A stretch of 37,137 bases of DNA from Promethearchaeota archaeon. Lineage in GTDB: Archaea > Asgardarchaeota > Lokiarchaeia > Sigyniarchaeales > SOKP01. Positions 3,055 to 25,608 of the stretch are shown in pieces. A model generated the notes under the pieces. The model ran no database searches and was not told where the DNA came from. It was given only the letters and a program-made list of their open reading frames with translations. Made by a program: the position numbers and the translations under genes. Position 1 is the stretch's first letter. Every line of letters begins with the position of its first letter. The DNA is taken from NCBI GenBank assembly GCA_011364975.1, contig RDOE01000032.1:1-37137 (forward strand), written 5' to 3'.

Positions 3055-3092
3055 ATACTCACGGATTTATATCTAAATAATAAATAGATGAT

Positions 3093-4202
3093 TTAAGTAT
3101 AAGGGACTTTTTTGGGAGGCAAAAACACATCCCGAGGGCCTGTTCTTTTTAAATAAATGGCTTTTTCAGAACAGTGATGAACACATACTCCACAACCAAT
3201 ACATTTTTCTAAATTTATTCTTGCAATTGATTCATCCATCTCAATAGTCTCCATTGGGCAGATTTCGATACAATTTCCACAACCAATGCATTTATTTTCA
3301 TCTAATTCCGCTTGATATGATGTCAGGGTATGAAAAGGCATAACTCCGCTATAATAAAGCTGAAATGGACCACAACAACAAGAGCAACAATTACAAATTG
3401 CTTCCTCTTCTAATTCTGGATTAAGGTGGACATGAAATGCTTTATGGACTAATCCCTCATCAGAGGCTTTATTCATAATTGTTATAGCGTTCTCTTTTGA
3501 TATAGGGTGTGCGAATTTATGTTTAATCGCAAATTGAGCACTTTTACCCAACAAAAAGCAATTAGTTCGTTCATTTGTTGTTTTACAAGATTTTTCTAAG
3601 AGATCCTGTTGATGCCTGCAGTAACAATGAGCTACTGCGATATCATCATATTTTTCTATAATTTTTGAAGCTTCCTCAAGAGGCATAACCTTCTCAACGG
3701 GTATTTCCTCAATTTCTTCTTCTACAGGTATTATTCTCGTCAATGCAGGAAAATTCTGAAATTGCTTAGCGATAAAATCATAATTAGTCTGAGTACCCTC
3801 CTGCATCTCTTTGAATAATTTTTCAAAAAGTTTAGCTATTTTTTTATGTTTTTCATCAGTTTCCCCTCTTAAATTAGTGTATTCAAACAATCCCGGAAAA
3901 GGACCCATTAATCGATACACCATCATACCAGTTCTTCTGCTTGGAACGCCTACTATAATTCCATTATCCATTAAATCATTTAACATCTGGTCTAAGGAAA
4001 TTTCATCAAGATTAGACTTCTCCTTTATTTGATCGAAATTTAAGGAGGGTTTTTTAAATATTTGAATAAATTTCGCTTGGCTATCCGTCATTAGTGTTTG
4101 AAGTAATGTAATGAGTGTATCAGTTATCGGCATTGGCATTTGCCCGGCTTTAACGATTGTACGAGCCGCTTTCAACCAAACTTTATCAATATCTTCAGAC
4201 AT
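3093..4202 (-). CDS. Multi-cluster Fe-S protein with C-terminal 2x[4Fe-4S] ferredoxin domain (paralog 2)
   Basis: Same architecture as 1957-3054: CYCR, ICNCCSCCCG, CIGCGNCIEICP, CIGCGVCVHHCS. The two proteins are colinear over their whole length. Confidence 0.85.
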   Translation of the reverse strand: MSEDIDKVWLKAARTIVKAGQMPMPITDTLITLLQTLMTDSQAKFIQIFKKPSLNFDQIKEKSNLDEISLDQMLNDLMDNGIIVGVPSRRTGMMVYRLMGPFPGLFEYTNLRGETDEKHKKIAKLFEKLFKEMQEGTQTNYDFIAKQFQNFPALTRIIPVEEEIEEIPVEKVMPLEEASKIIEKYDDIAVAHCYCRHQQDLLEKSCKTTNERTNCFLLGKSAQFAIKHKFAHPISKENAITIMNKASDEGLVHKAFHVHLNPELEEEAICNCCSCCCGPFQLYYSGVMPFHTLTSYQAELDENKCIGCGNCIEICPMETIEMDESIARINLEKCIGCGVCVHHCSEKAIYLKRTGPRDVFLPPKKVPYT

Positions 4203-4768: not shown

Positions 4769-5025
4769 CTTTAAGAAGCACTCTTTTTATTATTATTTTG
4801 AAATGATTTGAAAATTTTATAATTAATTATTTAAAATCTTCATTTTAATAATTGGGTTATATAATATAAATCTCTATCTTTTACATTGCTATTTGAAATA
4901 TCACTAAAATTTTATGTGATTATGACTAGGTATTGGTTTCCCACTTTTTTAATATTTTAGATTTAATTATAGAAAGGAATACAATCAAAAATTAAGAAAA
5001 ATAAGAAATTTTATAATAAAATTAA

Positions 5026-5268
5026 TTGACTATAAGATTAAAAATACAAAATAATGAATATTGATTTCTATATACTGAAATATTCTCTTTAAACTACTTC
5101 TTTCAGGGGATTGACCAAATTATTTTCACAACAGTAGTTCTGGTGTATTTATATGAGATATTACCAAATTTAGATTATGCAGCATTTTCATTTATGTTAT
5201 TCTTTGTTCTTTTGCCATTCATTTTAAAAATAATATATCAAATCCGTAGTGATATTATGAAACAATAA
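5026..5268 (+). pseudogene. Remnant of an MFS-type transporter N-terminus (in-frame TGA, truncated)
   Basis: Hand translation from TTG 5026: MTIRLKIQNNEY*FLYTEIFSLNYFFQGIDQIIFTTVVLVYLYEILPNLDYAAFSFMLFFVLLPFILKIIYQIRSDIMKQ*. YFxQG and LPxxxKxxxxxxSD resemble TM1-TM2 of AmpG-like MFS permeases. Confidence 0.5.
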
Positions 5269-5384
5269 AAATCTTTTTTATATCTTTATGATGAATAATA
5301 TTAATAATCTTGAAAAACCAAGTATTAGGTATTTAAATAAATAAAGTTAGAAATTGATTCATTTTTAATTAACATTGAACTATA

Positions 5385-6572
5385 TTGGTGAGCAAAATAA
5401 AAATTGAATATGCAAATCGTATAAAAAGACTTCCCGCGTACATTTTTGCTGAGATTGAGCAACTTAAATCTGAAAAGAAAAAAGAGGGTGTGGATTTAAT
5501 TCCGTTAGGTATTGGAGATCCTGATATAGCAACTCCACAACTTATTATTGATGAGATTATCAATCAACTCCAAATTCCAGAGAACTATAATTATCCAACG
5601 AGTATGGGAGAGCAAGATTTTAGAGAAGGTATACAAAGATGGTATAAGGTTAGATTTAATCTCGATTTTGATTCTGAAAGCGAAATTACTAACTTAATCG
5701 GAGGTAAAGAGGGTGTTGCTAATATAGCAAGAGCATTTATTAATCCAGGGGATATTGTATTATGTCCTAATCCAGGTTATCCGGTATATGAAAATGGTGC
5801 AACTAAATTATGTGATGGAGAACCCTATTTAGTTCCTTTATTAAAGGAAAATGAATTTCTTCCGGATTTTGAGCAAATAGAGAGTAATATCCTTAAGAAA
5901 GCTAAAATGATGTATCTAAATTATCCAAACAATCCAACTGGAGCTATTGCACCAAATAAATTTCTTAAAGAAGCAATAGATTACGCAGAGGATTATAAAT
6001 TCTTTATAGTTTATGATAACCCATATTCTGAATTTACTTTTGAGGATTACATTGCGCCAACAATACTACAATTGAATCCTTATCATATCGAAATTAATAG
6101 TGCTTCCAAAATTTTTTGTATGACCGGTTTCCGATGCGGTTGGGCGGTTGGAAATAATGAAATTATCAGCGGGATAAGAAAAGTAAAATCCCAGATCGAT
6201 TCAGGATGCCCAATGTTTATTCAAAGAGCTGTAATCAAAGGATTAAATGAATATACATCAGAAAAGAAACCTGAAATTGTAGATAAAAACATGAAAGTCT
6301 ATGAGAAAAGAAGAGATATCTTAATTAAGGGATTAAATGAAATTGGCTGGAAAACCGAAAAACCTAAAGCAACATTTTACGTATGGTCAAAAATTCCTGA
6401 AGGAGAAAAGAATAGTATGGAGTTTGTGAAAAAGCTTATTAATGTAGGAGTGATTTTAACCCCAGGAATAGGATTTGGTCAGTATGGAGAGGGATTCGTA
6501 CGATTTGCACTTACACAACCAATTGAAAAAATTGAAGAAGCGCTTGAAAGAATTGATAAAGTAATTAATTAA
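5385..6572 (+). CDS. Class I/II PLP-dependent aminotransferase, LL-diaminopimelate aminotransferase-like
   Basis: LGIGDPD, LNYPNNPTGA, DNPY and the PLP-lysine motif SASKIFCMTGFRCG; C-terminal GEGFVRFAL. Start may be GTG 5388. Confidence 0.9.
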   Translation: MVSKIKIEYANRIKRLPAYIFAEIEQLKSEKKKEGVDLIPLGIGDPDIATPQLIIDEIINQLQIPENYNYPTSMGEQDFREGIQRWYKVRFNLDFDSESEITNLIGGKEGVANIARAFINPGDIVLCPNPGYPVYENGATKLCDGEPYLVPLLKENEFLPDFEQIESNILKKAKMMYLNYPNNPTGAIAPNKFLKEAIDYAEDYKFFIVYDNPYSEFTFEDYIAPTILQLNPYHIEINSASKIFCMTGFRCGWAVGNNEIISGIRKVKSQIDSGCPMFIQRAVIKGLNEYTSEKKPEIVDKNMKVYEKRRDILIKGLNEIGWKTEKPKATFYVWSKIPEGEKNSMEFVKKLINVGVILTPGIGFGQYGEGFVRFALTQPIEKIEEALERIDKVIN

Positions 6573-8212: not shown

Positions 8213-11200
8213 TTGGGAGCTAAAAGCAATGATTTAGTAAAAAAGGAAAATTTGTCAAAATACCAAAAAATAAATGGATATTTATCTATTTTATTTGAAA
8301 TTATTATTATTCTGTTTTCTTTCTTTATTGGATTCCCTATAATCATTATACTTTCTTTTCCAATATTTGTGCTTCTAACAATTTATGAACAGAAAGTGGA
8401 TATTTGTCCAAGAGAATATAGTAGATTCATCTATCTAATTAATGTTCTTGGATTTTTAGGGTATATATGTTTTTGGCTTTTACCATTACTCATTCCAAAC
8501 ATCCTTTTTACAATACCCTTTATCGTATTCTTATTGTTATTTTATCTTTCCATGCAAATCTTTGCCCATAATGGATATTTTGATAAAAATAATGTTTTAA
8601 TATTTCAACATATTCTTGCGGTGGGAATGTTTATTACAATTATCTATTCCTTCTTCGATATTATCTCAACAGGATATATCAATTTTTCTGCTGAGACCGA
8701 GATTATAATTTTTGCAAACGTATTATTGCACATAATAATTAATCTTATAGTTCTTCTGATTTCCTTTTATTATTTATATGCAAGATATTTCCGTAATTTT
8801 CCTTGGAAAAATTTTAATCGGGCTATAATTACAAATATGTTATTAATCGAAATAACTGCATATATTTTAATTAATTTCAAGAATTTCTTTACTATAAATA
8901 TCCAAATGTTTCTGAATAACTTTCTCGTTTCTCTACTTGTATTTCCACTATTGTTCATTCTTTTTATTTTTCTAAATTATGTAATTGGTGCTTTTAGTAG
9001 GGATTTTAGTTTAAAGTATTGCTATTACTCTTGTTGGGTTATTTTACTAGTATCTGCTGCCTCAATCTTCTATATCTTTTTTGGAGATTTTGTAATTATA
9101 ATAGCTAATTTCTTGTATATTTCAATAGCTATACAAGTTTTATCGATGTTCGCATTAAAAATTAATAAAATTCAAGAAAAAACATTTCAGAAAATAAAGA
9201 ATTACACTGCTTATTCCATCTGGATCGAAATCTTTGTATTGTCTTTCTCTTTGTTTTTTAATGTACTTGAAGCTCTGATTATAAATCTAATTAGCAGGTC
9301 AATCCTTTCGGTGTATTTAGCCTTTTTGATCATAACAGCATTTAATATGATTGTAAATAAAACAGGCATTATCCCAGTTTCTTTACGAATTATAACAATA
9401 GACTTTGCCTTGTTTTATACAACATTTATAATTTTTTATTTCTCTCTTCTGTTAAACTTTAACACTTTTTTGGTATTTAATGTTCCAGCTTTATTATCTA
9501 GTTTATGGCTCTATCTACCCTTATTTAGGTTGAAAAGACGGGCTTCAAATCAAGGTTTAATAAAAAAGATAATTCAATTAAATGTAATTATTACATCGAT
9601 TACTTTACTTCTTATTCCTTTAATTTCTCATTTACAATTACAACTTCCTTTATCTGATTTCACACTTCTAAACTTAGTAAACTTTACATTATACATTTTC
9701 TATGGAATACTGACAGGGTTGCACATATTATCTCGCAGGCTTAATTTTAGGGAAGCTAGAAAAATTTTGATCTTAAAGGTTCAAATTGTTATTGAAATTG
9801 TCATAACAGGGACTACGGTGTTTTACTATTCTTTTGTTTTATTATTTGGTACCTACTTATCTTTCGTGTTACCTTTACTCTTTTCTTCACTCTTTCTATT
9901 TTTACCTGCTTTCTTTTCATACAAAAGGAATTTTTTCAATGCTAAAATACTAAAAAACATTATTATTTTGAACAGTATAGTACTTTGGGGCTGTATTATT
10001 TCCATTCCCTTTATGATAGGGTTTGATATATTTGGAATTGAAGTATTAATTTCTGAAATAGCAACAAATTTAATTATTGTAATTTTAATTTCATTTTTTC
10101 TGTTATTTAGTGCCTTAAAATATTTTGATAATCTTTCTAAATACCTAAAATTAAAGGATAATCTTATCATACGTTTAAAGATTACAGAAATTATTATATG
10201 GTTATCAATTTGCGTTTTAGTTAGTTATGGATTATATAACTTATTCTCGTTTGTTTCTACTGAGTGGCAATATATTTTAATATTGAGTGGTTCTTTCCTA
10301 CTTTTTTTCATAATTGATTTAGTAAATCTTCGATTACTTGAAGATCTGAAGCAAACTGTATTTGAAAGTGAAATTAGCAAGATTGATTATTATAAAATCT
10401 ATAAAATCTATGAATTTAACAAAAATTTAATTATATTTGGAATTTCATTCTCACTCTCTTTTCTTTTAACAACTTTCATTCAAATAATAAATATTCCAGG
10501 ATTATTATCGATAGAAAGTTTTCAATACTTTGATCTGTTATTTAATTTTTCTTTTTTCTTCCTCTTTGTATTGGGATTGATCAATCTTTTTGAAAAACTA
10601 GTTAAAATCGAATATGAAAGATTTAAAGAAATTCTTGAATTAATCGCTTGGTTATGCTTAAAAAGCTTAGTTTTAATAATATTTGCTTTATATCCATTTC
10701 ATATCTTATTTTACAACAGAATATTGTTAATTATTCTAATATTTTCGGTACTTAGTCCAATCACTCTTACCTATTTAAAAACAAAATTCTTGATTTTTGA
10801 AGAAACTCAATTGTTAATAAAAAAATGTATTGGATTAGTATTTTTTCTCTCCATAGTAAGCGCTTATGCAGAGATTTTATTGGATTATACTGGAATTGTG
10901 CCATTTTTTATAACAAATAATGATATATTAAGTATATATATTCTTTGTAAAGTTATCTTATTTGTATACTTCTATTTCTCGAGATTTAATGCTTTTTTTG
11001 AAAAAGATTCAGGTTTTCGTATTTATCGGTTAATGCTTTATTCGGTGATATTTTTAGGATTTTTTTCATTATTTTCACCTTTATTATCGTTGATTGGAAT
11101 AATATTGATCTTAATTAAACGAGCGAAGAATTATTTTCTCCGGTTTTTAAGTTATTTTTTAATTAGTATTACCTTATACATTGATATTCTCGGATTTACA

Positions 11201-14200
11201 GGATTTAGTTTATCTATAGCAAACATTAATTTACAAATTACAATCTATTTAGGGATATTTATCTCAACATTAATTCTTTCTATTTGTTCAAATCTCAAAA
11301 AAATTAATAATCTAGAAGAATTTTCGCTTTTTGTCTGTCTTTCTACCATCTCCTTCTTACTATTATATCCGATTATTCCATTACTTTATAATATCACTGT
11401 TTCGCTATTTATATACTTAAGCTTAATGGGCGTCTTTTATTATAATAAAAAGGATAAGAGATACAGATGGTTTGTTAAACCATGCATCCTTTTAGCAGTA
11501 TTTGACTTTATTAGTTTTATATCCTACACAATACTTTTTACTATTACTCCTTTTTTGGAATTTAATCAAATATTAACATTCACTTTAACAATATTTATCA
11601 CAGGTTTTCTCTTTGTTTTTCTTTATAATGATTCTCCACGTTTATTTAGAAAAAGTAGCTACTATATAATTCTAACTTTAAACACATTTTCTCTTCCAAT
11701 ATTTATATATTTCTTATTAATAGCCGCCTTTTCATTACCAATTTTTGATATAACTGTCTTCACAATTGCCATCAATATAGCTATTCTTCTTTTCTATTTT
11801 TCTATCGCTATTTATCAATGGAACATTTCATGGGCAATATGGAGCATTGGTTATAGAATTTGGATATTATTACCTATAGCAAATTATATGTTAATCAGTA
11901 AGGCTTTTACAGGCATTGATGTGTTTACTAATGCGCTTGACTTCTTTGGACTTAATATTTATGGTTCAAATATTATTGCATTTGTAATTTGTTTGTTAAT
12001 GTCATTACCCTTTTGGTACACCTGGATTAAGAAGAATTTTAATACAGTGCTGTTTATCGTATGGGGTTTAAGTTTAATTTTAATTTATTGGTTCAGCCAA
12101 AATGCATTTTTAAATGATATTTTTCTATTCATTTTATCATTTTTTGGAATCTCACTAATTTTTCTTATTCCCATTTTAATAAGAATGAAGATTTGGAGCA
12201 TTGGGTCTATATTATGGACCTTTTTTTCAACAATAATGCTGATTTTTCTCTTTAATTTCCTAAATGCCCATGGTCTGTTAATTCAATTGAATATTTCGGT
12301 GATTCTTATTGTTGGGGGAATTTTATTTATTATTTTATCATTTTTCCCTAGTCTAAGGGCCCAAAAAAACATTATTTTATTAATTTCTTTTATAATTTCA
12401 ATTAGTGGTGTATTTCTAATAATATTTAATATAATATATTTAATAACCTTCGAATTTTGGATTTCACTGTTTATATCTCTGATTATAATGTCTTTTAGTC
12501 TTTATTCATCAAGATTGTTAAAATTAAACAAAAGTTTCTTTAATACCTTAATTTCTAGTATCTTGATTATTAGTTTTACTGGTTTGACTTTCTTTACTTT
12601 AAATTTAATTCCCAACTTAGAGCTCCTTTCCTTTTATTTAGCTTTAACCGTTTGTGGAGCATCTTTTTTTGTATTTAATTACTATCGTCTCTTTGTTCCA
12701 GCAAAAAGAATAGTTCCGTTAACTATTTTATCTGTTGGCCTTTCACTTTCCGCTTCAACAATATGGTTGATGGTATTTCCTTCATCTTTATTTGTTATGC
12801 TTGCTATTTTTCTAGCTATTAATTTATTTTTCTTTAAGTTTGCGTTAATAAACCGAAGGTATATATTATGGTATTTAAGTCCAATTCCGATAACGCTTCT
12901 AATTTTAGAGCCTTTATCTTTTATTGAACTCTTTCAGTCATTATTATTATTTATTATTATGGGTTTGATGACGTATACTATTATTTTTCAGATATTAATA
13001 AACCTGTCTAGTAAAACTACAAAAGAAAGAATGCAGATTAAGTTAGTTAATTTAGTCTGTTTTCTTCTCATATCTACATATTTTTCTTTTTTGATTACCG
13101 CAATAAGTCCTATCTTATTAATATATCAAATTTTTGAGTTTTTAATTATCTGGTCAATCTTAGTATTATTTAGTACAAATTATCTTAAAAAATCACAAAT
13201 TACTTTTGACCTTGAAAATTTTGAGGTAAATTTAAAAAGATTTATCTCAATTGTTTCTATTTTGTTATATTTCGAAATATTTTCTCTTACTTTGGGGCTT
13301 TTGATTAATTATAGCCTATTAACTACCCTGGAAATTATTATAATCTCTTTTAGTTCCCTATTCCTCCTCACTGGGTTCGATTTAGCGATCTTAAGAAATG
13401 TCAATAAGAAATATTGTTTCCCTATTAATTATTCAACCTATTTGTTAATTTCTATACTATTGTTCATTTATTTAATACAATATGTTACCGATACATTTGA
13501 ATTTCTATTTTTGGATATAATTATTCTGTTAATTATGCAATATTATTCAATACTAGCGATTTTTTCTCATTTAAAGAGGTTAGATCGATATGAGATTACA
13601 ACATTAAATATTAGGCGTAAAGGATTGTTAAGTCTCTTAACAAACTCTATCTTTATAATAATAGGGTTGTATATATCCTCATTTTTGACAACTCTACTTA
13701 CCAACTTAAATCCGGCATTAGAAGGTTTTCCATCAACTTCATTTTTTATTATGGTTCTATCGTTTTTCATGTTCGTTTTAAATAATCTCCTTAAATATAA
13801 GTCAAAGAATTCAATATTATGGGGGATTTTTATAGTGTTACAATGCTCACTATCTACATTTTACCTAAGCTTATTAGCATTTTTCAATTATTTCAACATC
13901 TTTAGTATAATACTTCTCTTTCTCATTAACACTTTAATGAGCTTTTATACATTTTACATCCTCTCAAAGATTTACAAAGCACGAATAAATAAGGATACAA
14001 TTCGTAAAATCTATTCATTATTAATCATAATCTCATATTTAGAAATTTCCTTCACATTCTACGGACTTGCTAATCTTATATTTGATTATAGAGAAAGCTT
14101 CTTAATTTCTCAACTTGCTTTACTTTCCATTACTTTAGTGGAATTAAGCGTTGTGAAAAGAATCAGGAGGAAGTATATTCTAATTCTCCATACACTCAGT

Positions 14201-15787
14201 TATTTTAATGTTTCCATATCACTTTTCATGTTTTTGTTAATTCTTTCGGCCTACAATATGTCCTTACTAACGTTCTCAGTCGTCCTCTTTTGTCTAATGC
14301 AGTTCTATACAAATATCTCTTATTATAACACTAGAAAAGAATTCAATTTAGAGAAAGAAGAGAGTTTTCTTAGGTGGAAATTAATTAGGAAAAATTTGAT
14401 TGGGGGAATTTTTTATATTACTATAATCGGGTATATATGGCAAGTTCTATTTTTAGCAGGTTACGAAATTCTTTTAATGCTATTTCTTTTAATTATTCTC
14501 ATTCATGTATTAGCCATAATTGATAGGGTGGTTTTAAAATTTATTGGAAGGTTTTCTGTACACCTGATGAATTTTTCTTGGTTATTTTTAGTAGGTTTTT
14601 CATTGTTTTACTATTCAAGTTGGATTATAACATATTCTTTTTATGTTATTCCTGTGATTATCCTTCTTATTATCATAGAATTATCATATGGATATATGGT
14701 CAAATTAACGGATATATGGGCATCATTTAAAAATAATCGAAGGAAATTCAGAAATTTTTTGGTAATTATAACCTATTTTAACTTTATATCCTGGCCAATC
14801 TACTTTTTAAGCTTAGAGCCAATGATTTTTTGGGGATCCATATTACTTTCTTTGGGAATTGGATTAACTTTTACATTGATTGATAAAAGTATTAGAGCTT
14901 TTAATGAAGATTTTAGAGCGAGGTTATTTAAACTTTTATTTAGTAGCTTTGGAATCATTTTTTCTGTCGATGTTTATTTCCTTTTAGATGGATTAACTGC
15001 AAATAACTTCTTTTTTAATATTTCAGTCTCATTATTTACATTCGTTATATTTATAGGTATTCTTATTAATCCTTTCAAAAGAAATAGGTTATTATCATTC
15101 CTATATTGGACCATAACATTTTTTCTACTTAGTAGTATTTCATATAATGCCTATTTTACCGGGATAAGCTGGGCAATATTAATTATCGGTTTATTATTAT
15201 ATCCATTTATTTTTATGTTAGAAGAATTGAAACTCTTCTTTGAAAAATTTGTTGAAAACATTAGTATCCTTCTTAAGAAAATTGCAGCTTCTATAGGTAA
15301 ACTTATTACAGGAATATTCAATTTTCTTAAGAGGAACTATAAAGTTATACGTATATTTTTATGCGTACTTTTTGGAGTGATGGCGGGAATCCTGTTTTCT
15401 GATATTATTTTACATATCTTAAATCCCTATCACTCTTTATTGCTTGCATTTGCGATCTTTGGTCTGTTATATGGTATCCTTCCTTCAGAAAAAACTGAGG
15501 ATTATGACGAAATTTTTAAACATAAAATGACTAGATTCATAACACTCTGGGTGGGTATGACTGCATTTATTTTTCTTTTTATTTTACCTTATTTAGAGTC
15601 GGTACTATTTTCTTTTTTCCTTTTGTTGCTTTCAATTTTAGGTTTAGGAGCGATAATTTTGATCTACCTATATAGATTAGAAGAAAAAGAGCGGATCTCA
15701 ATCTTATGGCGTTTTTATACATTGATTACCTTCTTTATAATTTTAGGGATTGAAGCAGTAATTATAGTATTTTTATATATCTCTTAG
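8213..15787 (+). CDS. Giant polytopic membrane protein of unknown function (2524 aa)
   Basis: A 7.5-kb uninterrupted ORF in AT-rich DNA, composed of F/I/L-rich ~20-aa segments separated by short K/R-rich loops throughout. No recognisable enzymatic motif. Confidence 0.85.
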   Translation: MGAKSNDLVKKENLSKYQKINGYLSILFEIIIILFSFFIGFPIIIILSFPIFVLLTIYEQKVDICPREYSRFIYLINVLGFLGYICFWLLPLLIPNILFTIPFIVFLLLFYLSMQIFAHNGYFDKNNVLIFQHILAVGMFITIIYSFFDIISTGYINFSAETEIIIFANVLLHIIINLIVLLISFYYLYARYFRNFPWKNFNRAIITNMLLIEITAYILINFKNFFTINIQMFLNNFLVSLLVFPLLFILFIFLNYVIGAFSRDFSLKYCYYSCWVILLVSAASIFYIFFGDFVIIIANFLYISIAIQVLSMFALKINKIQEKTFQKIKNYTAYSIWIEIFVLSFSLFFNVLEALIINLISRSILSVYLAFLIITAFNMIVNKTGIIPVSLRIITIDFALFYTTFIIFYFSLLLNFNTFLVFNVPALLSSLWLYLPLFRLKRRASNQGLIKKIIQLNVIITSITLLLIPLISHLQLQLPLSDFTLLNLVNFTLYIFYGILTGLHILSRRLNFREARKILILKVQIVIEIVITGTTVFYYSFVLLFGTYLSFVLPLLFSSLFLFLPAFFSYKRNFFNAKILKNIIILNSIVLWGCIISIPFMIGFDIFGIEVLISEIATNLIIVILISFFLLFSALKYFDNLSKYLKLKDNLIIRLKITEIIIWLSICVLVSYGLYNLFSFVSTEWQYILILSGSFLLFFIIDLVNLRLLEDLKQTVFESEISKIDYYKIYKIYEFNKNLIIFGISFSLSFLLTTFIQIINIPGLLSIESFQYFDLLFNFSFFFLFVLGLINLFEKLVKIEYERFKEILELIAWLCLKSLVLIIFALYPFHILFYNRILLIILIFSVLSPITLTYLKTKFLIFEETQLLIKKCIGLVFFLSIVSAYAEILLDYTGIVPFFITNNDILSIYILCKVILFVYFYFSRFNAFFEKDSGFRIYRLMLYSVIFLGFFSLFSPLLSLIGIILILIKRAKNYFLRFLSYFLISITLYIDILGFTGFSLSIANINLQITIYLGIFISTLILSICSNLKKINNLEEFSLFVCLSTISFLLLYPIIPLLYNITVSLFIYLSLMGVFYYNKKDKRYRWFVKPCILLAVFDFISFISYTILFTITPFLEFNQILTFTLTIFITGFLFVFLYNDSPRLFRKSSYYIILTLNTFSLPIFIYFLLIAAFSLPIFDITVFTIAINIAILLFYFSIAIYQWNISWAIWSIGYRIWILLPIANYMLISKAFTGIDVFTNALDFFGLNIYGSNIIAFVICLLMSLPFWYTWIKKNFNTVLFIVWGLSLILIYWFSQNAFLNDIFLFILSFFGISLIFLIPILIRMKIWSIGSILWTFFSTIMLIFLFNFLNAHGLLIQLNISVILIVGGILFIILSFFPSLRAQKNIILLISFIISISGVFLIIFNIIYLITFEFWISLFISLIIMSFSLYSSRLLKLNKSFFNTLISSILIISFTGLTFFTLNLIPNLELLSFYLALTVCGASFFVFNYYRLFVPAKRIVPLTILSVGLSLSASTIWLMVFPSSLFVMLAIFLAINLFFFKFALINRRYILWYLSPIPITLLILEPLSFIELFQSLLLFIIMGLMTYTIIFQILINLSSKTTKERMQIKLVNLVCFLLISTYFSFLITAISPILLIYQIFEFLIIWSILVLFSTNYLKKSQITFDLENFEVNLKRFISIVSILLYFEIFSLTLGLLINYSLLTTLEIIIISFSSLFLLTGFDLAILRNVNKKYCFPINYSTYLLISILLFIYLIQYVTDTFEFLFLDIIILLIMQYYSILAIFSHLKRLDRYEITTLNIRRKGLLSLLTNSIFIIIGLYISSFLTTLLTNLNPALEGFPSTSFFIMVLSFFMFVLNNLLKYKSKNSILWGIFIVLQCSLSTFYLSLLAFFNYFNIFSIILLFLINTLMSFYTFYILSKIYKARINKDTIRKIYSLLIIISYLEISFTFYGLANLIFDYRESFLISQLALLSITLVELSVVKRIRRKYILILHTLSYFNVSISLFMFLLILSAYNMSLLTFSVVLFCLMQFYTNISYYNTRKEFNLEKEESFLRWKLIRKNLIGGIFYITIIGYIWQVLFLAGYEILLMLFLLIILIHVLAIIDRVVLKFIGRFSVHLMNFSWLFLVGFSLFYYSSWIITYSFYVIPVIILLIIIELSYGYMVKLTDIWASFKNNRRKFRNFLVIITYFNFISWPIYFLSLEPMIFWGSILLSLGIGLTFTLIDKSIRAFNEDFRARLFKLLFSSFGIIFSVDVYFLLDGLTANNFFFNISVSLFTFVIFIGILINPFKRNRLLSFLYWTITFFLLSSISYNAYFTGISWAILIIGLLLYPFIFMLEELKLFFEKFVENISILLKKIAASIGKLITGIFNFLKRNYKVIRIFLCVLFGVMAGILFSDIILHILNPYHSLLLAFAIFGLLYGILPSEKTEDYDEIFKHKMTRFITLWVGMTAFIFLFILPYLESVLFSFFLLLLSILGLGAIILIYLYRLEEKERISILWRFYTLITFFIILGIEAVIIVFLYIS

Positions 15788-18699: not shown

Positions 18700-18742
18700 A
18701 TTTATTATACTTTTTTTTAATTATTCCCTAAACTAAAACTAT

Positions 18743-19333
18743 TCAAATTTTTCTACATACTAATTCCCCTTTTCCAATGGGTATGATCAACGCATCTACT
18801 CGCTCATCAGCTAAAGCCTTTTCCAACATTGGTTTTAAGGTTTCATAATGGTTAATTGCATTATCAGCAACTAAAATACCACCTTTGATCATATTTGGGA
18901 CTAATAGATCATAACATTCACTATAGATTTCTTTTTCAGCATCTAAGAAGCAAAAAGATATGTTGTTATAATTATGAATGTATTTTAGAGCATTACCCTC
19001 AATCAATTCGATTGTATCTTTTGTATTTGTTAGTTCAAAGGTCTCTCTTGCTAGTCTTGCTTTATCTTTTAAAATTTCAAAAGTTATTAGTTTCCTCCCT
19101 TGAAGTCGGCATGCTAATGCTATCCATAAAGCAGAATAGCCACCACTTGTACCAATCTCTAGGAATTCTCCATCTGGCGCACTAGCAGCCAAAATTGATA
19201 TAAATTTTCCAGTATCAGGGGGTATTTGACGTAATCTTTCCATTCTATGGGTTCCATCCAACCTATCTTTCTGATCCAAATTTTCTAAATATTGCATTCG
19301 CTTCTTAATAGATTCTTCTATATCATGAAACAT
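18743..19333 (-). CDS. SAM-dependent O-methyltransferase (COMT/CCoAOMT-like)
   Basis: [10 protein letters not shown] (SAM motif I), FLDAEK and GGILVADN. Confidence 0.9.
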
Positions 19334-19461
19334 TTTCTATCAACTTTTATTATTAATTTTTTATCTATTAATTTATTTGTCAAACAAATTAAAATTAGTT
19401 AAATTAACAGATTTGAAATCATAATAATTTAGGAGAATTAAGTAGAAATAAGGTTAAAAGG

Positions 19462-19727
19462 ATCAAGAAGATGCAATGATTACCCGAAGGTTTTCATTGC
19501 GCGTATTGGCGTTTCATACTAGAAGTGTGAAATTTTATGATATATCAATTCAATTTTTTTAATAGATCCGAAAATCTATCATCAAAATCTACATTCGGAA
19601 ATGTTGTATTTCTTTACAGAAACATGAATTTGTTACCAAATTCCTTTACCCAAAGGTAATTGAACTGGTAAAGATATATCACGGTTCCAATACTACTTCT
19701 CGATGTTCACACCGTTAGGTATGAACA
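19462..19727 (-). ncRNA. Predicted large multi-branched structured RNA of unknown family
   Basis: Long-range stems: 19696-19704/19462-19470, 19687-19693/19503-19509, 19673-19681/19538-19546 and 19658-19664/19549-19555. Hairpin loops on the minus strand: UAAC (19705-19726), UUUG (19646-19659), GUAA (19626-19643), GUAA (19609-19622), UCCG (19591-19604), UUCG (19562-19579) and cUUCGg (19473-19500). Confidence 0.75.
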
Positions 19728-19743
19728 ATATATAATCTGAATC

Positions 19744-19756
19744 TTTTATATTTAAA
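19744..19756 (-). promoter_or_regulatory. TATA box for the structured RNA
   Basis: Minus strand TTTAAATA(TAAAA) at 19756-19744, with the TTTAAATA core about 22-29 nt upstream of the first hairpin. Confidence 0.5.
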
Positions 19757-19883
19757 GAAGACTATTAATGGATTATTAAATGCTTTTTGTGGCATATATT
19801 AATCATTCAATTTTTTTAGTCGTTATTGAGCTATAGGTAGATTGAATAAATAGCTTTTTTATTCTTTATTTATTTTACTTTAT

Positions 19884-20345
19884 ATGGCAATCTCATTTTT
19901 TGATGGAATGTTCCTTTTTATAGCTATTCTTTTGAATCTATTGATAATTTTCATTTTTATCATGAGATATCGGGGTTCAGAAGGATTAGAACACAAAATC
20001 GGATATTTTGTCATTGCATGCGCCTTCCCATTAGTTATAATTCTAATCAATTACATTTGGATTGGTATAGATTTATGGATTATTATTTATCTCATTATTA
20101 TTATTAATTTCTTAATTCTTGAAGCGATCTTAGATTACATCTTAAAAATAAAGTTCCGAAAAAATCCAAAAATTGTAGGTCCTTACATCTTGTTCTATTA
20201 TGTCGCGTTTTGGGGGTTGCTAGCAATCTCATTTGTTATTGATTTGGTGATTGGGTTTATTGTATTTGGTATTTTTATGATTAGTGTGGGTGTTACTATA
20301 TACACTCATAAAAAGGAAAAAGATAAAATGTTTAAAAAACAGTGA
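19884..20345 (+). CDS. Hypothetical membrane protein (about 5 TM segments)
   Basis: 153 aa, almost entirely hydrophobic segments with a basic C-terminal tail. Confidence 0.75.
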   Translation: MAISFFDGMFLFIAILLNLLIIFIFIMRYRGSEGLEHKIGYFVIACAFPLVIILINYIWIGIDLWIIIYLIIIINFLILEAILDYILKIKFRKNPKIVGPYILFYYVAFWGLLAISFVIDLVIGFIVFGIFMISVGVTIYTHKKEKDKMFKKQ

Positions 20346-20346
20346 A

Positions 20347-22761
20347 TTAGTCATTCTCTAAAAAACTAACTAAAGGTTTTTGAACAAATTTCCTACTATC
20401 CTCGGATTTCAATAAGTCCTCAAGTTCAGGAAATTGAAAAGGAAAGAGATTTTCAAAAGCTCTCTTGAGCAACTCAACATATTTCTTTTTATCATATTGA
20501 TGCCGTTTTTCATCATAGAGCTCTGTAAGAACTACCTTCTTTTCTGGAAAATCTGGATCAGCATCAGCATTAAGGATTATATACCTTACATTCTTCCCAG
20601 GGGAAGCAATTTCTCCTGAACGCTCCAACTGTTTAGCAGCAACAGCTTGATATGAGTTTACCTTGTAATTTGAGGGTTTTCTGGAAATTCTCTGACGTAT
20701 AGTAAGTTCTTCACGTGAAATCTTCCCGGATTCAATTTTATTGATATAATGAACAAATAGATTCTTTGCTTTAGGAATTAGCTGCATAAATTCCTTGGTG
20801 GTAGTTGCTCCTTTAAACACGTCAATAAGAGCATACTGAGCTTCTTTGACAACTTTAGGAATATCTCTACGCCTAACTTCAATACCTCTTACTTTAATTT
20901 CACCTTCACTTTTTATCCCCCAGTAGTGACTTAACGTAGGAATATCTGGTTCTGCTCTTGAAGGAAGAAATACAATAATATTGAAACGCCCATCCCAGCT
21001 CATGGGAATGTTGGTATGCTCAGTTATTTCATTAGCAATTTTTTTAGTAATAATATCGAACTCTTCAGGAGCCCTATTTTCTGTATCCTTTAACCATATT
21101 GAATCCACAATCCCATGTATGATCTTACAGCCATACTTTTGCGCAATTTCGGCAGAACGCATTAAAAATTCACGTGCAAAAGCACATACTGTTTGATGTG
21201 CTTCAATTTTCCCAAAACGTGCGTTTCTAAATCCTAAATACCCAAAACTTACCACAAGTACCCATTTTAGCGCAATGTCTGTAAATTTATAGCGAATTTC
21301 TCCAGTTTTCCTAACATGTTCCTTACAAAGTAATCGTTTTGTAAGGGGCAGCTTAATTGATTTAGAAATGATACCTTCCCGTTTAGAACAAATATGGAAA
21401 TCCAGTCCAGGTACCTTTATTCCGGTACCATCGCCTTTACAACATTTGCAATTAATTGTTTCTGAAGAAATATTATAATTAGCCATTAAAGAGGGATACA
21501 TTGAAGAAAAGTCTAACTCAACTACTTGATCATAGACACCAATTAACGGTTCGAATATGTGTCCCCCTCTATCACTCCTAATCAAATCGAACCCACTATT
21601 AAAACCTTCAGGACTTTTCTTGAATGGAGGAATTAGATGATCAAGTTTGTACGCATAATAATACTGTATAGATTGAAGTGCTCCGCCAATCGTTATGCGA
21701 CTTAGTCTTTGGAGGGGAACTCTCGAGATTCGTGCAACTTCTATTACTCCAGGAATATTCCCTTCAGAGAAATGAAGACTCGCATATGTGGCAGTATCAA
21801 GATGAAAACGGCCACTCAAATATACTTGCGTTTTTGAACGATGCCTAATAATGCCATAAGACATATAATGATCTGAGTTTCCAGAGAGCTCAAAAATGCA
21901 GCTTTTCAAGGGTGTTTTGTCTCGAGAAAGATAGAGTTCATTCAAAACACGGTTTTCTGAAGCGCGTGCTACCAAAAAAGGAAGAGAAAAATCATCTCCA
22001 TTAGATGTAAGAATTATATCAGGATCTAGGCGTTCAATTACCTTACTAATTGCCTTTATCGTTTCTGCTTCATTAGCTCTGTCAATCAGAATTCGCTTCT
22101 TCTTATATCCGTCAGCGCGAGGAACATTGTTCTCATCATTTTCTACAACACCCACTTCTGCATAAATCAGCGTGTCGTTATAGTAGGGTCTTATGCCTCG
22201 TTGGTGAACTTTAATATCTAGCCACACAGCTTTTAAAGGAGGGAGTTCATAGAAAAGTTTTTCATTATCATCTTTTAGATCTAATGAGATAAGGCGGATA
22301 ATTGACTTCTTTTTCTTCCTATCTTTTTGAATTTTTACTTTGAACTGACAAAGTGAGATAGGAAATAAATCATGTACATAAAAATACATCTGAGCGATAG
22401 GAAGATCGGTGTTATATAATGTAAAAAGCCCGAGTTCTTCGACTTCATGTATTGTTTTCTTAAACTCCGAAGGTTTTGTGACTGAAACACCTAGAATTCG
22501 CGTTTTCTTATGATCCTCTAACTTCACATATTTCTCGCAGATTCTTATGGATTTTACATTATCATTCTGCATAAGGATAGTCTTTAACCTCCTAAGATCA
22601 TTACCCGCATTCTTAGTTGGTACGGCAAAAAACTCTGGGTAATAATCATGAAAAATCCGTATAACTTTCTGTTCTTTTACTGTTTTTACCCACAGAATCA
22701 CACCATCACTATATGTAGAAACATCCAAAAGCCAACCTTTAAAGCTTCTTTGTATAGCCAA
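20347..22761 (-). CDS. polB2: Family B DNA polymerase, archaeal PolB2 (Dpo2) group
   Basis: Motif A LDFSSMYPS, motif B ALKWVLVVSFGYLG, and motif C altered to HGIVDS (canonical YGDTDS). Exonuclease motifs are degenerate (LDIKV; NGDDFSLPF). Confidence 0.9.
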   Translation of the reverse strand: MAIQRSFKGWLLDVSTYSDGVILWVKTVKEQKVIRIFHDYYPEFFAVPTKNAGNDLRRLKTILMQNDNVKSIRICEKYVKLEDHKKTRILGVSVTKPSEFKKTIHEVEELGLFTLYNTDLPIAQMYFYVHDLFPISLCQFKVKIQKDRKKKKSIIRLISLDLKDDNEKLFYELPPLKAVWLDIKVHQRGIRPYYNDTLIYAEVGVVENDENNVPRADGYKKKRILIDRANEAETIKAISKVIERLDPDIILTSNGDDFSLPFLVARASENRVLNELYLSRDKTPLKSCIFELSGNSDHYMSYGIIRHRSKTQVYLSGRFHLDTATYASLHFSEGNIPGVIEVARISRVPLQRLSRITIGGALQSIQYYYAYKLDHLIPPFKKSPEGFNSGFDLIRSDRGGHIFEPLIGVYDQVVELDFSSMYPSLMANYNISSETINCKCCKGDGTGIKVPGLDFHICSKREGIISKSIKLPLTKRLLCKEHVRKTGEIRYKFTDIALKWVLVVSFGYLGFRNARFGKIEAHQTVCAFAREFLMRSAEIAQKYGCKIIHGIVDSIWLKDTENRAPEEFDIITKKIANEITEHTNIPMSWDGRFNIIVFLPSRAEPDIPTLSHYWGIKSEGEIKVRGIEVRRRDIPKVVKEAQYALIDVFKGATTTKEFMQLIPKAKNLFVHYINKIESGKISREELTIRQRISRKPSNYKVNSYQAVAAKQLERSGEIASPGKNVRYIILNADADPDFPEKKVVLTELYDEKRHQYDKKKYVELLKRAFENLFPFQFPELEDLLKSEDSRKFVQKPLVSFLEND

Positions 22762-22764
22762 TTT

Positions 22765-23037
22765 TCACTCTTTTCCTTTTATTAGTTCTTCTAATTCGTG
22801 AATTCGATGCAATAATAGCTCGATTCTTTTTTCTTGTTCAATTGCGAACGAAATGAAAAGATGCTCTGAAAGCATGGGACGTGCCGCTAGGCTTCCAGCA
22901 TCAGCATGAATTCTTGCAAAGTTCATTAACTTATCAAAAACTTTTTGTTCCTCTGGTCTAAGCGCTCTTTTAAAGTCTTTCCAGCTTTCTATTTCATGCT
23001 CTAGAGCCGGTCTAAATGAAGGAACTGTTCTACCCAT
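22765..23037 (-). CDS. PolB2-associated small helical protein (arCOG07300-like)
   Basis: MGRTVPSFR..LE.E...W..F.RALR.E....FD.L...AR.H..A, located 3 nt upstream of polB2, matching the known PolB2 neighbourhood. Start revised to ATG 23037. Confidence 0.8.
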   Translation of the reverse strand: MGRTVPSFRPALEHEIESWKDFKRALRPEEQKVFDKLMNFARIHADAGSLAARPMLSEHLFISFAIEQEKRIELLLHRIHELEELIKGKE

Positions 23038-23241
23038 GATTATAACCAAAAATGATAATTGTTGCTAAAATTTAAAAAAAAATACTTTGAGAGTTTTTTA
23101 ATTTACTGCCGAAATGCCTTTATAGAAAGATTTTAGCTAAACGAGAATATTATCATAAAGAACATTGAAAGCCAATAACTTTATTAATCAATCTGCGTCA
23201 TTAATTGATATTAGAATTAGTCAATCGAGGGGATTATAGGA

Positions 23242-25608
23242 ATGAAACGAGTGAATATAACGCTTAATGATTTGTTGCCCAAAGGAGAACAATTAACTTT
23301 TTTAGTAGGTGCGGGGTGTTCCGTGGATGCCCCATCGTGTCTCCCGGCTGGTCGTCCTATGATGAACGCAATCATTAATCATGTGACAGCAGAATCAGAG
23401 CATGAGAAACTTGCGAAATTGCAGGAAATCCGTTTTGAATCATTGGTCGAGATCGTACGGGATAATCTCGATCCCGAGCTAAAAATTATTGATTATTATA
23501 CTCAATGTGATAAACCAAATCTCCAGCATTTCTTCTTAGCGAGTATGATTGAACGTGGGCATTTTGTCATGACTACAAATTTTGATCTATTAATTGAGCA
23601 TGCAATGTTACAATTAGGGATACCAATAGAACAAATAAAAGTTGCAATTACAAAAAAAGATTTTGAGAAACTTAATGACCCTGAAAAGCTTTGTGCTGAT
23701 GGATTCAAGACTCTTTACAAAATTCACGGGTCTACAGAAAACGTTTTAACCAAAGAATCAACTAGAGAAAGCTTGATTGCAACTATTCAAGCATTTGGTT
23801 CGAACAAGCAAGGATTAAGTGTGTTTCAAGTTGAGCCTTTTAAACGCACCCTATTCGATAATATATCTCGTGGGCGTTCTTTAGTCGTCATGGGATACTC
23901 TGGGAGTGATGATTTTGATGTGGTTCCCACTCTCAAGGTTCTTCATGAAATGAAGTCGGTGATATGGATAGATCATAGATTTGAAATAACCAATATACCA
24001 AATATATACGAAATCGAGATTCCGAAAAAAGTGGACAGTAAAAATGGGAGTAAGGTGGATCAAATTCTATTAGATATTAAACTCGCATCAAATATTCCTC
24101 ATGTTTATAAGGTTGAGATAAATACTTCTAGTTTTTCGGAATTTTTCCTCTCAAGAGAGATCTCTCTTTCAAACGAGAACTTTAAATTAAGCCTTCAATC
24201 TTGGTTGAGCGAAAATGTTAAGGTGGAAAATGAAGCAATGAAATATATAATTCCCCAACAACTATATCATGACTATAATCGCTATGAGGATTCATTACGA
24301 TGCATTGAAGACCTTTTGAAGCTCGCTCGCAAACAAATGGATCCTGTTTTAGAAATTCGAGCATTGCTTCTGAAGGGAAAAGTTCTTGATTCTGCAGGGA
24401 ATCACAATGATGCTATAAAAATCTTTCAGGACGCTCTCAAACAGGCAAAATCATTACAAAATGAGGAATGGTTAGCCGCATCTTTAAATAACATCGGAAA
24501 TGTGTATAACAGTAGAGCTAAATATGAAGAAGCGCTATCCTATTACAAGCAAGCACTCCCTATTTTCCAAACGAGGGGGAGCCTTTATGAAGAAGGTATC
24601 GTGATGCGAAATATGAGCTCAATTCTCAAAAATTTGAATCGAAACTCGGAAGCTTTGGAACATGCAAGAAGAGCATTGGAAATTTCAGAAGTGTTTGGAA
24701 AATTATCAGATAAAGGAGATATTTTAATGATAATTGGCATGATCGAGACCAGCATGGGAAATGTACAAGATGCAATCACGCATTATGAAGAATCCCTAAG
24801 AATAAACGATCAACTACATGATTACGATGCAAAAGTAGGCGTTTTGAATGTATTAGGTGATTTAATGATGAAACTAGGAGATTTTAACCGTGCTCTGACA
24901 TACTTTCAAGATTCATTACAAGTATCTGAAAGTATTAATGATCTTTCTGGAAAAGCATCAACTTTAAACAATCTGGGAAGACTTTACACAATTTTATCTG
25001 ATTTTTCACTAGCAATGAATTACCTGACTCTTGCAAGGAATTTAGCAAATGAAATTCAAGATAGTCTTATTGAAGCAAATAGTTCTTCCAATATGGGACT
25101 TGTATACTATTATCAAAGTGAAATGGATGAAGCATTAAAAATTTGGGAAAACACTTTAAAGATTTACGAAGCGAAAAAATTTGAGCTTGGAAAGGCAACT
25201 ACTCTCATTAATATCGGAGATGTCTATTATCAAAAACAGAAATATAAAAAGGCTTCTCAGGCTCTCGAAGAAGCATTAAGAATTGGTAAGGAATCAAACG
25301 ATATGGGTATTCAAGCCAATTCATTACAGAAATTAGGTATGATTTTGCAGGATGAAAAACAGTATGATAATGCAGCTTCTCTTTATCACAAGGGGTTAGC
25401 AATCTGCCAGCAAATAGGGGATATTGTAGGAATTGCTACATTCATAAATAACCTTGGTGCTATAGACTTTTCTCGTGAAAAATATGACGTTGCTCTTCAA
25501 AAATACAATGAAGCTTATAATCTTCTAAATCAAGTAGGATTGGGAGAAAGTCCATTAGCTTATACCATCTTAAGAAACATTGATCATCTAAATCAGCTTT
25601 CAAAATAA
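23242..25608 (+). CDS. SIR2-like (SIR2_2) domain fused to a long TPR array
   Basis: N-terminal ~250 aa carry FLVGAGCS, TTNFD, KIHGS and VMGYSGSD. The C-terminal half has ~40-aa TPR repeats (e.g. LNNIGNVY...YEEALSYYKQAL). Confidence 0.88.
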   Translation: MKRVNITLNDLLPKGEQLTFLVGAGCSVDAPSCLPAGRPMMNAIINHVTAESEHEKLAKLQEIRFESLVEIVRDNLDPELKIIDYYTQCDKPNLQHFFLASMIERGHFVMTTNFDLLIEHAMLQLGIPIEQIKVAITKKDFEKLNDPEKLCADGFKTLYKIHGSTENVLTKESTRESLIATIQAFGSNKQGLSVFQVEPFKRTLFDNISRGRSLVVMGYSGSDDFDVVPTLKVLHEMKSVIWIDHRFEITNIPNIYEIEIPKKVDSKNGSKVDQILLDIKLASNIPHVYKVEINTSSFSEFFLSREISLSNENFKLSLQSWLSENVKVENEAMKYIIPQQLYHDYNRYEDSLRCIEDLLKLARKQMDPVLEIRALLLKGKVLDSAGNHNDAIKIFQDALKQAKSLQNEEWLAASLNNIGNVYNSRAKYEEALSYYKQALPIFQTRGSLYEEGIVMRNMSSILKNLNRNSEALEHARRALEISEVFGKLSDKGDILMIIGMIETSMGNVQDAITHYEESLRINDQLHDYDAKVGVLNVLGDLMMKLGDFNRALTYFQDSLQVSESINDLSGKASTLNNLGRLYTILSDFSLAMNYLTLARNLANEIQDSLIEANSSSNMGLVYYYQSEMDEALKIWENTLKIYEAKKFELGKATTLINIGDVYYQKQKYKKASQALEEALRIGKESNDMGIQANSLQKLGMILQDEKQYDNAASLYHKGLAICQQIGDIVGIATFINNLGAIDFSREKYDVALQKYNEAYNLLNQVGLGESPLAYTILRNIDHLNQLSK

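Follow-up and report, generated by a model that had tools for sequence, protein, structure and literature searches.

Why does a 550-bp gap between two reading frames of an Asgard archaeon fold so strongly, and does it hold a gene of its own? The gap lies in a 37,137-nt contig of a Promethearchaeota archaeon (RDOE01000032.1, assembly GCA_011364975.1; the whole of this stretch is called the window here). An earlier note on this DNA had proposed that the minus strand of the gap encodes an undescribed Asgard noncoding RNA (ncRNA), and our analysis supports that proposal. The gap carries a stand-alone gene for a structured RNA, at window positions 19726–19456 on the minus strand, with a predicted primary transcript of about 271 nt. 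It matches no Rfam family, its homologues keep a TATA box at a fixed distance, its helices covary, and parts of it are present in RNA libraries, where contigs join its 3' end back to its 5' hairpin. The explanation that we consider best, a new RNA of one Asgard family that is transcribed from its own promoter, abundant, processed, circularised and used as a scaffold, has in our estimate an even chance of being right as a whole.

A folded RNA with its own promoter

The gap (19334–19883) separates the start of a minus-strand O-methyltransferase gene (18743–19333; Pfam Methyltransf_3) from a plus-strand open reading frame (ORF) at 19884–20345. The only ORF of at least 40 amino acids (aa) within it lies on the plus strand at 19537–19659. 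When folded with RNAfold, the minus strand from 19730 to 19455 reached −84.2 kcal/mol, compared with a mean of −49.96 kcal/mol for its dinucleotide shuffles (z −7.66; 0 of 200 shuffles folded as well). The plus strand folded less well (−72.2 kcal/mol, z −5.76). The earlier description of a strongly folding gap without a credible ORF therefore stands.

The minimum free energy (MFE) fold has a 5' hairpin, H0, followed by a closing stem P1 (9 bp) that encloses P2 (7 bp) and P3 (10 bp), the central hairpins Ha, Hb, Hc and Hd, a further hairpin He, and the 3' hairpin H3' (Table 1). G-U pairs make up 8 of its 95 pairs. Most of the architecture read by eye in the earlier note was recovered: the 5' hairpin with its UAAC loop, the 9-bp closing stem and the 3' arm capped by cUUCGg are all present. 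It had listed three further nested stems of 7, 9 and 7 bp, whereas both the MFE fold and the consensus have two, P2 and P3. Four of its five central hairpins do sit at the central junction, but the fifth, He, lies between P3 and P2. Likewise, four of its five UNCG or GNRA tetraloops were confirmed, and the second GUAA loop is absent from the MFE fold.

The TTTAAATA box ends 22 nt ahead of the 5' hairpin, close to the earlier estimate of about 25 nt. Archaeal promoters have the TATA box centred near −26/−27, and from this geometry we infer a transcription start at about G19726. The distance between TTTAAATA and the RNA was constant in all 21 loci inspected (13 of 13 and 8 of 8) and in most of the 58 loci described below. 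Just upstream, most of the 58 loci have the element TTAATAG either intact or with a single base altered, irrespective of the gene that precedes it; it may act as a regulator site or extend the promoter. At the other end, the U-rich sequence that had been noted after the RNA is a CCUUUU tail, which is likely to be the termination site. From the tail region it is 129 nt to the methyltransferase ATG, on the same strand, as had been stated.

The RNA stretch occurs once in the genome (G000). Weak BLAST matches of the promoter region on two other contigs of that genome (C135 and C173) were set aside as AT-rich chance likeness, with no tRNA or other RNA gene behind them. A scan for sigma-70 promoters and intrinsic terminators gave counts not above those of shuffles; such a scan is inapplicable to archaea.

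Covariation supports the fold and its strand

Two alignments carried the covariation counts. A5 comprises 69 matches to R3, a full-length covariance model of 272 positions and 79 pairs built from 13 short-form sequences; it is fitted to the model, and that fit favours the structure. A3 comprises 13 sequences aligned with MAFFT only, with the caveat that its structure was taken by RNAalifold from that same alignment. A further MAFFT alignment, A4 (21 sequences), was excluded from the counts because the 3' strands of P2 and P3 are misaligned in it.

The two alignments agreed. In A5, 92.4% of cells were standard pairs, compared with 36–42% when the partners were slid by 1–3 columns; 62 of the 79 pairs had changed on both sides, and the covariation score was 0.280 versus 0.04–0.06 for slid partners. 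For A3 the corresponding values were 96.1% versus 35–41%, 34 of 79 pairs, and 0.361 versus at most 0.096. The observed values were not attained by any of 500 shuffles of either alignment. Compensatory changes were found in every helix, with double changes in all 11 helices of A5: at four of the seven pairs of P2 (helix 3), at all nine of P3 (helix 4), and at varying numbers of pairs in the hairpins (Table 1). The cells of P1 were paired in 95.2% of cases in A5. H0 was paired in 96.7% of cells in alignment A2, with double changes at two pairs, and had double changes at seven of eight pairs in A5.

Conservation is uneven across the molecule. The sequence itself is kept in P1, in the first half of P2, in the CAAUG/CAUUG core of P3 and in the stem of H3'; the peripheral hairpins vary freely in sequence while keeping their pairing. 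Many pairs pass through G-U; one pair of P3 is GU in 30 and GC in 26 sequences of A5. Because such pairs would be A-C on the other strand, they place the RNA on the minus strand.

Distribution and size forms

BLAST searches in relatives yielded partial matches, and the loci taken from these share one order of features: TATA box, H0, AUCGAGAAG, a hairpin GCAAUGA...UCAUUGC, CUUCUYGA, and N-CC followed by U's. A covariance model of the 5' part (R1; 64 positions, 13 sequences) matched 20 of the 42 genomes of the genus. A second model of the 5' part (R2; 21 sequences) matched 58 of the 151 genomes of the order, 56 of them in genera g1 and g18 and two, marginally, in g9. The two g9 matches (E about 0.007–0.009) were rejected, as R3 did not confirm them (0 of 14 genomes in f2). 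R3 itself also matched 58 of the 151 genomes, all within one family: 20 of 41 in g1 plus G000, 36 of 53 in g18, and one of six in g23. It matched none of the 19 genomes from the three other families of the order and none of 125 in a phylum-wide Asgard sample outside the family. In the window, R3 matched 19457–19728 over its full length with 208.2 bits.

A scan with a 21-base motif, using one genome per species, returned 44 records, and R3 confirmed 28 of them. The confirmed records are metagenome-assembled genomes labelled Promethearchaeota, Promethearchaeia, 'Hodarchaeota', 'Hermodarchaeota' or 'Thorarchaeota', or 'uncultured archaeon'. The other 16, bacterial or Thermoplasmatales, were not confirmed by R3 and do not contain the RNA. 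Five Bacteroidales genomes have the motif (L139, L156, L160, L174 and L181) without an R3 match; there it probably belongs to a conserved coding stretch that has nothing to do with the RNA. No viral contig of IMG/VR matched the RNA. One congener otherwise scored as lacking it, G010, has a weak partial R3 match (C57:2454–2599, 30.2 bits), which may be a decayed remnant.

The RNA occurs in four length classes: about 260–275 nt (G000 and 12 others), 350–383 nt, 667 nt and 730–740 nt. The 350–383-nt forms keep the frame and have a different interior domain. In the 735-nt forms (G025, G002 and G015), R3 matched three consecutive full-length units, which in G025 span 3049–3306, 3298–3561 and 3553–3785. 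The first and last of these units build the outer P1 and H3' stems, and the loop of H3' houses the additional units in the long forms of relatives. As their sequences read, the 735-nt forms are head-to-tail trimers fused in one predicted transcript. G122 (L116, contig C76) has two complete copies in tandem, at 5025–5296 and 5537–5808, 512 nt apart; this arrangement is likely an intermediate toward the fused trimers. G014 has two loci. The 5' end also varies: eight members of the family carry two 5' hairpins, and in G140 (L121, contig C21) H0 is missing and the closing stem follows directly after the TATA box.

The RNA in RNA libraries, and a back-join

The stretch was present whole in 14 DNA sequencing runs and in part in six RNA runs. 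We placed Logan contigs from four metatranscriptome runs of three studies on window positions 18700–20900; the other two RNA runs, X19 and X20 (share 0.06), were left out. All placed RNA-run contigs fell within 19472–19717. None lay on the methyltransferase gene, the 153-aa ORF upstream of the RNA, the end of the polymerase gene beyond that ORF, positions 19718–19726 or the tail. Lack of contig cover was weighed only together with a contig that joins across the uncovered part, since on its own it is no evidence.

Run X15, from the same study as one of the DNA runs containing the stretch, gave a single 162-nt contig more than 99% identical to the window. Run X17, of 277 million letters, gave 24 contigs that were 90–99% identical. 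Summed word depths over the RNA, in four bins, were about 3,900, 11,400, 78,900 and 42,400; depths derived from contigs in this way are rough and are sums over relatives. The RNA family is very abundant in X17.

A 159-nt contig of X17, with a depth of 762, spans 19696–19717, continues into TCAAGAAG and then runs on from 19472 to 19594. It thus joins 19717 to the homologue of 19463–19470, and two loose ends show the same junction. From 19717 and 19713, loose ends of X17 contigs continue, in reverse complement, with the 3' strand of P1 and with H3'. Written as RNA, the joined sequence is ...UCAUUGCAG-CUUCUUGA(U) / (U)AACGGUGUGAAC-AUCGAGAAG..., where the slash marks the junction. The end of P1 is thereby linked to the loop of H0, and the join leaves out the tail together with the 5' half of the hairpin. 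The joined motif occurred in none of the 154 genomes of the order that were searched and in no metagenome contig, compared with 16 metagenome contigs that contain the unjoined motif.

The simplest reading of the join is that the RNA is probably circular, with a length of about 255 nt. The covariation of H0 implies that the RNA includes the 5' half of this hairpin at some stage, in keeping with H0 serving as a signal for processing. The genome encodes RtcB (553.7 bits).

Circle or linear RNA?

On the explanation that we favour, transcription would run from the TATA promoter of the gene itself, starting at the first base of H0 and stopping at the CC-U run. The sequence-conserved frame consists of H0 abutting a stacked P1-P2-P3, together with H3'. 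The interior is made of UUCG-capped hairpin modules whose sequence evolves fast while pairing is retained; in relatives it is replaced by another domain, or the whole unit is repeated head to tail, up to three units. Processing would then trim H0 by its 5' half, take off the CCUUUU tail and join the end of P1 to the H0 loop, giving a circle of about 255 nt. The last steps are the least certain: the frame may serve as a platform for processing and for protein binding, and the multiplied hairpin modules may form a stable scaffold or decoy for a partner, or an RNA-only assembly. The repeated multiplication of the whole unit is easier to reconcile with a function that grows with unit number, sequestration or assembly for example, than with a single catalytic site.

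Several observations weigh against this explanation. First, the route usual for archaeal circles leaves the join unexplained, because there is no bulge-helix-bulge (BHB) motif, in which a 4-bp helix separates two 3-nt bulges, at it: by inspection of the fold, one join site is a 4-nt loop on an unbroken 9-bp stem and the other is the base of P1. The search for an Rnl3-type RNA ligase was negative as well; the single PF09414 hit in the genome was examined as a candidate RNA ligase and proved to be the replicative DNA ligase. Second, the RNA evidence consists of assembled contigs, which show neither strand, true ends nor level, and RNA libraries can contain DNA. On one side of the join the bridging contig extends over only 22 (+8) letters, short of the threshold of 31. 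Most X17 contigs are only 90–95% identical to the window and so come from relatives rather than from this organism. Either a reverse transcriptase that jumped between templates or a tandem gene, fused in some relative outside the sample, could have produced the join. Third, no partner is indicated, since among the neighbouring ORFs of the 58 loci none is universal and none belongs to an RNA-binding family, and a scaffold or decoy function is something that we infer from the architecture alone. Finally, roughly one species in two within its genus does not have the RNA, so any function it serves is dispensable.

The most serious rival follows from these points. It holds that the RNA is an abundant, stable, linear ncRNA and that the join is a template-jumping artefact or the trace of a fused tandem gene. 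It draws on the restriction of the evidence to contigs, on the short overlap of the bridging contig, on the tandem and fused copies known in the family and on the missing BHB motif. Other features of the contigs speak for a real join. The junction contig, at its high depth, extends 123 nt further within the RNA body, and the junction is therefore not a rare side path for that variant. A second junction variant is found among the loose ends, and no contig shown covers the 5' half of H0. The joined motif was moreover seen neither in the 154 genomes nor in metagenome contigs, 16 of which contain the unjoined one. We regard the linear RNA as rather unlikely, with a chance that has to be taken seriously.

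Could the RNA process itself? In this second alternative the conserved frame would act as catalyst for cleavage in the loop of H0, for attack by the 3' end, or for both, and produce a circle without protein endonucleases. There is a parallel in group I introns, whose cyclisation releases a short 5' oligonucleotide; here the join drops a short 5' piece of 9–13 nt. The complex, multi-branched fold, the conservation of the core helices in sequence beyond what pairing needs, and again the lack of a BHB motif would all suit a ribozyme. Against it, no Rfam ribozyme family matches, G140 does wholly without H0, and stacking of H0 on P1 would set the 3' end of P1 at the foot of H0, with nine pairs between it and the loop. 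In 21 A-type sequences, columns left unpaired in the fold were screened for pseudoknots with a filter of 90% or more standard pairs and three or more pair types. The screen retained 885 column pairs, with no runs of consecutive candidate pairs that would mark a pseudoknot or catalytic core, but a signal from the three clades dominated and makes it uninformative. Self-processing appears improbable.

If circularisation is true, the RNA would represent a stand-alone archaeal circle whose sites of formation fall outside the BHB rule, pointing to an unknown processing activity or a new ribozyme. A bolder idea, about which we are doubtful, is that the frame is a natural circular-RNA chassis: it would direct removal of the half-hairpin and tail and a BHB-free, possibly self-catalysed ligation, yielding an abundant circle with cargo that can be exchanged or multiplied up to three units. 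Assembled into an RNA-only or ribonucleoprotein (RNP) particle, a circle of this kind might take part in the cell biology of the prokaryotes most closely related to eukaryotes. Asgard archaea are the nearest relatives that eukaryotes are known to have, and few RNAs specific to one of their lineages are known; this one is so abundant that it accounts for a visible part of a sediment metatranscriptome. Unusually, its evolution combines a fixed frame with an interior that is exchanged or tandemly multiplied. It is also a convenient experimental target, being small, highly expressed and dispensable in related species.

Table 1. Features of the RNA gene and its surroundings, in window coordinates and ordered 5' to 3' on the minus strand.
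Feature	Position	Strand	Basis or remark
Conserved upstream element TTAATAG	19762–19768	−	A few bases 5' of the TATA box
TATA box TTTAAATA	19749–19756	−	Spacing to RNA start fixed in relatives
Whole predicted primary transcript, ~271 nt	19456–19726	−	R3 full-length match and MFE fold
H0, 5' hairpin GUUCAUACC-UAAC-GGUGUGAAC	19705–19726	−	MFE fold; abuts P1 with zero spacer
Back-join acceptor: H0 loop and first base of H0 3' half	19713–19717	−	RNA contigs
P1 5' strand AUCGAGAAG (closing stem, 9 bp)	19696–19704	−	MFE fold; sequence nearly invariant in family
P2 5' strand GUAUUGG	19687–19693	−	MFE fold; pairs with 19509–19503
P3 5' strand GUGAUAUAUC	19673–19682	−	MFE fold; pairs with 19546–19537
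Ha, long hairpin with internal loop, cap UACC-UUUG-GGUA	19633–19671	−	Helix 5; double changes at 7 of 12 pairs in A5
Hb, GUAA-loop hairpin	19607–19624	−	Helix 6; double changes at 4 of 4 pairs in A5
Hc, UCCG-loop hairpin (UUCG in most relatives)	19591–19604	−	Helix 7; double changes at 5 of 5 pairs in A5
Hd, two-part hairpin, UUCG loop	19552–19589	−	Helices 8 and 9; double changes at 7 of 7 and 4 of 6 pairs in A5
P3 3' strand GAUAUAUCAU	19537–19546	−	MFE fold and A5
He, hairpin between the 3' strands of P3 and P2	19512–19532	−	Helix 10; double changes at 6 of 6 pairs in A5
P2 3' strand CCAAUAC	19503–19509	−	MFE fold and A5
H3', 3' hairpin GCAAUGA..ACC-UUCG-GGU..UCAUUGC	19473–19500	−	Helix 11; double changes at 7 of 8 pairs in A5
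P1 3' strand CUUCUUGAU	19462–19470	−	MFE fold and A5; pairs with 19704–19696
Back-join donor: last bases of P1 3' strand	19462–19463	−	RNA contigs; position ambiguous by one U
Tail CCUUUU	19456–19461	−	N-CC, then U's, 3' of P1 in the family members inspected

Comparison with known RNA families

Searched against Rfam 15, the whole window had no match at gathering scores, and this covers OLE, GOLLD, ROOL, raiA and HEARO. With E values up to 10, the region 19300–19900 gave two chance-level matches only (E 1.4 and 2.9), and eight loci of the other size classes gave none at E up to 1. Full-text literature searches turned up no description of such an RNA in Asgard archaea. The RNA is a new family that fits no known kind, and the novelty claimed for it earlier stands.

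Circular forms are not foreign to archaea. The known archaeal circular RNAs, such as rRNA intermediates and tRNA introns, are made by the splicing endonuclease and RtcB at BHB motifs, and archaeal C/D box small RNAs (sRNAs) also have circular forms. The present RNA resembles the BHB-derived circles in that its 3' end is joined to an upstream 5' site, a closing stem gathers the ends, and RtcB is encoded in the genome. It differs from them in lacking BHB motifs at the sites, in having its 5' site in a hairpin loop, and in being a stand-alone gene. Circular rRNAs have been reported in Asgard archaea (PMC12918454), and circular isoforms of the omega RNA of IS200/IS605 elements in archaea (PMC12558985).

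Like the C/D box sRNAs and the omega RNAs, the RNA is a small, stable archaeal ncRNA, for which contigs suggest a circle. Unlike them, it has no conserved C (RUGAUGA) and D (CUGA) boxes or K-turn, no Rnl-type ligase was found in its genome, and it has no IS200/IS605 context. By inspection of the alignments, UGAUGA appeared in single sequences and was not conserved, and the stems are plain Watson–Crick helices.

A mobile-element RNA, either the transcript of a miniature inverted-repeat transposable element (MITE) or a guide such as an omega RNA, would account for a closing stem that looks like terminal inverted repeats, for the patchy presence among species and for the variable interior, and the omega RNA isoforms would provide a precedent for the circle. 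The RNA does not behave as a mobile element in other respects. It is present in one copy in G000, has no transposase among its neighbours, and has conserved ends with no variable guide; its position behind the same polymerase gene is kept in 26 of 58 loci across two genera, and viral contigs lacked it. We consider this origin very improbable.

Could it instead be a highly divergent form of a universal RNA, that is ribonuclease P (RNase P) RNA, signal recognition particle (SRP) RNA, a transfer-messenger RNA (tmRNA)-like molecule, or a C/D or H/ACA guide? Its size and multi-branched fold are RNase P-like, and the N-CC tail beside the closing stem recalls the end of a tRNA. That tail is its sole likeness to a tRNA. 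ARAGORN found no tRNA or tmRNA gene in the window, and H3' is capped by UUCG and has no T loop. The window had no match to archaeal RNase P RNA (RF00373) at the gathering score or at E up to 10 and none to archaeal SRP RNA (RF01857), and both RNAs of this genome are found elsewhere: RNase P RNA at G000:C1:2993–3306 (117.4 bits) and SRP RNA at G000:C22:1607–1845 (77.6 bits, E 1.9e-17). The earlier note had likewise seen no RNase P, SRP or tRNA motifs. The RNA is also missing from half of the congeners and has no conserved C/D boxes, and this alternative has an extremely small chance. With regard to Y RNAs and Ro RNPs, no Ro60 (TROVE) protein was matched in G000, which is 99% complete.

The SRP RNA of G000 scores below the Rfam gathering threshold of 96.5 and covers model positions 67–307 only; either the Asgard SRP RNA has diverged or its 5' domain is unusual.

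The large orphan ncRNAs of bacteria (OLE, GOLLD, ROOL, raiA and HEARO), some of which form RNA-only multimeric assemblies, are also among the nearest kinds. The RNA shares with them a length of hundreds of nucleotides, many covarying helices, patchy distribution, high expression and no obvious function. It is unlike them in matching no Rfam model and in being archaeal and confined to one Asgard family, and also in its frame with exchangeable interior, its tandem multimers in one transcript and a back-join that suggests circularisation. A second set of analogies concerns modular RNAs. RNAs of the CsrB/RsmZ type sequester proteins through repeated hairpins, and yeast telomerase RNA is a flexible scaffold. 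As in those RNAs, hairpin modules vary in number here and a conserved core carries expandable arms. Different from those RNAs, the modules have no common conserved loop motif beyond UUCG-type caps, and there is no known partner protein.

Genomic context

We extracted about 5 kb on either side of 57 loci, clustered the ORFs around the 58 loci and scanned representatives against Pfam. At 26 of the 58 loci, in two genera, the RNA lies behind a family B DNA polymerase gene (PolB) on the same strand; these are all the g1 loci except those of G033 and G026, together with the g18 members that have two 5' hairpins. In the window, PolB spans 20347–22761. An ORF of about 92 aa without a Pfam match (cluster c1; window 22765–23049, minus strand) always sits just upstream of PolB on the same strand at these 26 loci. 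At 18 g18 loci the RNA instead follows a 125-aa membrane ORF, and smaller groups of loci have zinc-ribbon, GyrI-like or gelsolin-repeat proteins as neighbours. In five congeners that lack the RNA and are rated 100% complete, the next gene comes directly behind PolB and the syntenic site is empty.

The earlier note had left room for a large riboswitch, that is, a cis-regulatory leader of the O-methyltransferase gene, which would fit the shared strand and close spacing in the window. This reading, to which we give practically no chance, is already refuted by synteny, as the window has the only one of the 58 loci at which the methyltransferase lies behind the RNA, downstream genes differ among clades, and in G036 and G016, which lack the RNA, a methyltransferase homologue stands 70–100 nt behind PolB; moreover, the RNA has its own CC-U run tail and the RNA contigs end inside it. 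Because these congeners have PolB and the methyltransferase without the RNA, the RNA is an accessory gene and its link to the methyltransferase is one of synteny only.

Between PolB and the RNA, the window has the 153-aa ORF at 19884–20345 on the plus strand. It has no Pfam match, its sequence looks like that of a membrane protein, and its homologues (cluster c29) adjoin the RNA in five other loci, either before or behind it.

Two other genes of the window stood out. On the plus strand at 23242–25608 is a gene for a protein of 788 aa in which an N-terminal SIR2_2 domain is combined with numerous TPR repeats, a mixture of SIR2 and TPR that is common in defence-type nucleoside triphosphatase (NTPase)/SIR2 proteins. 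On the same strand, a giant ORF of 2524 aa occupies 8213–15787.

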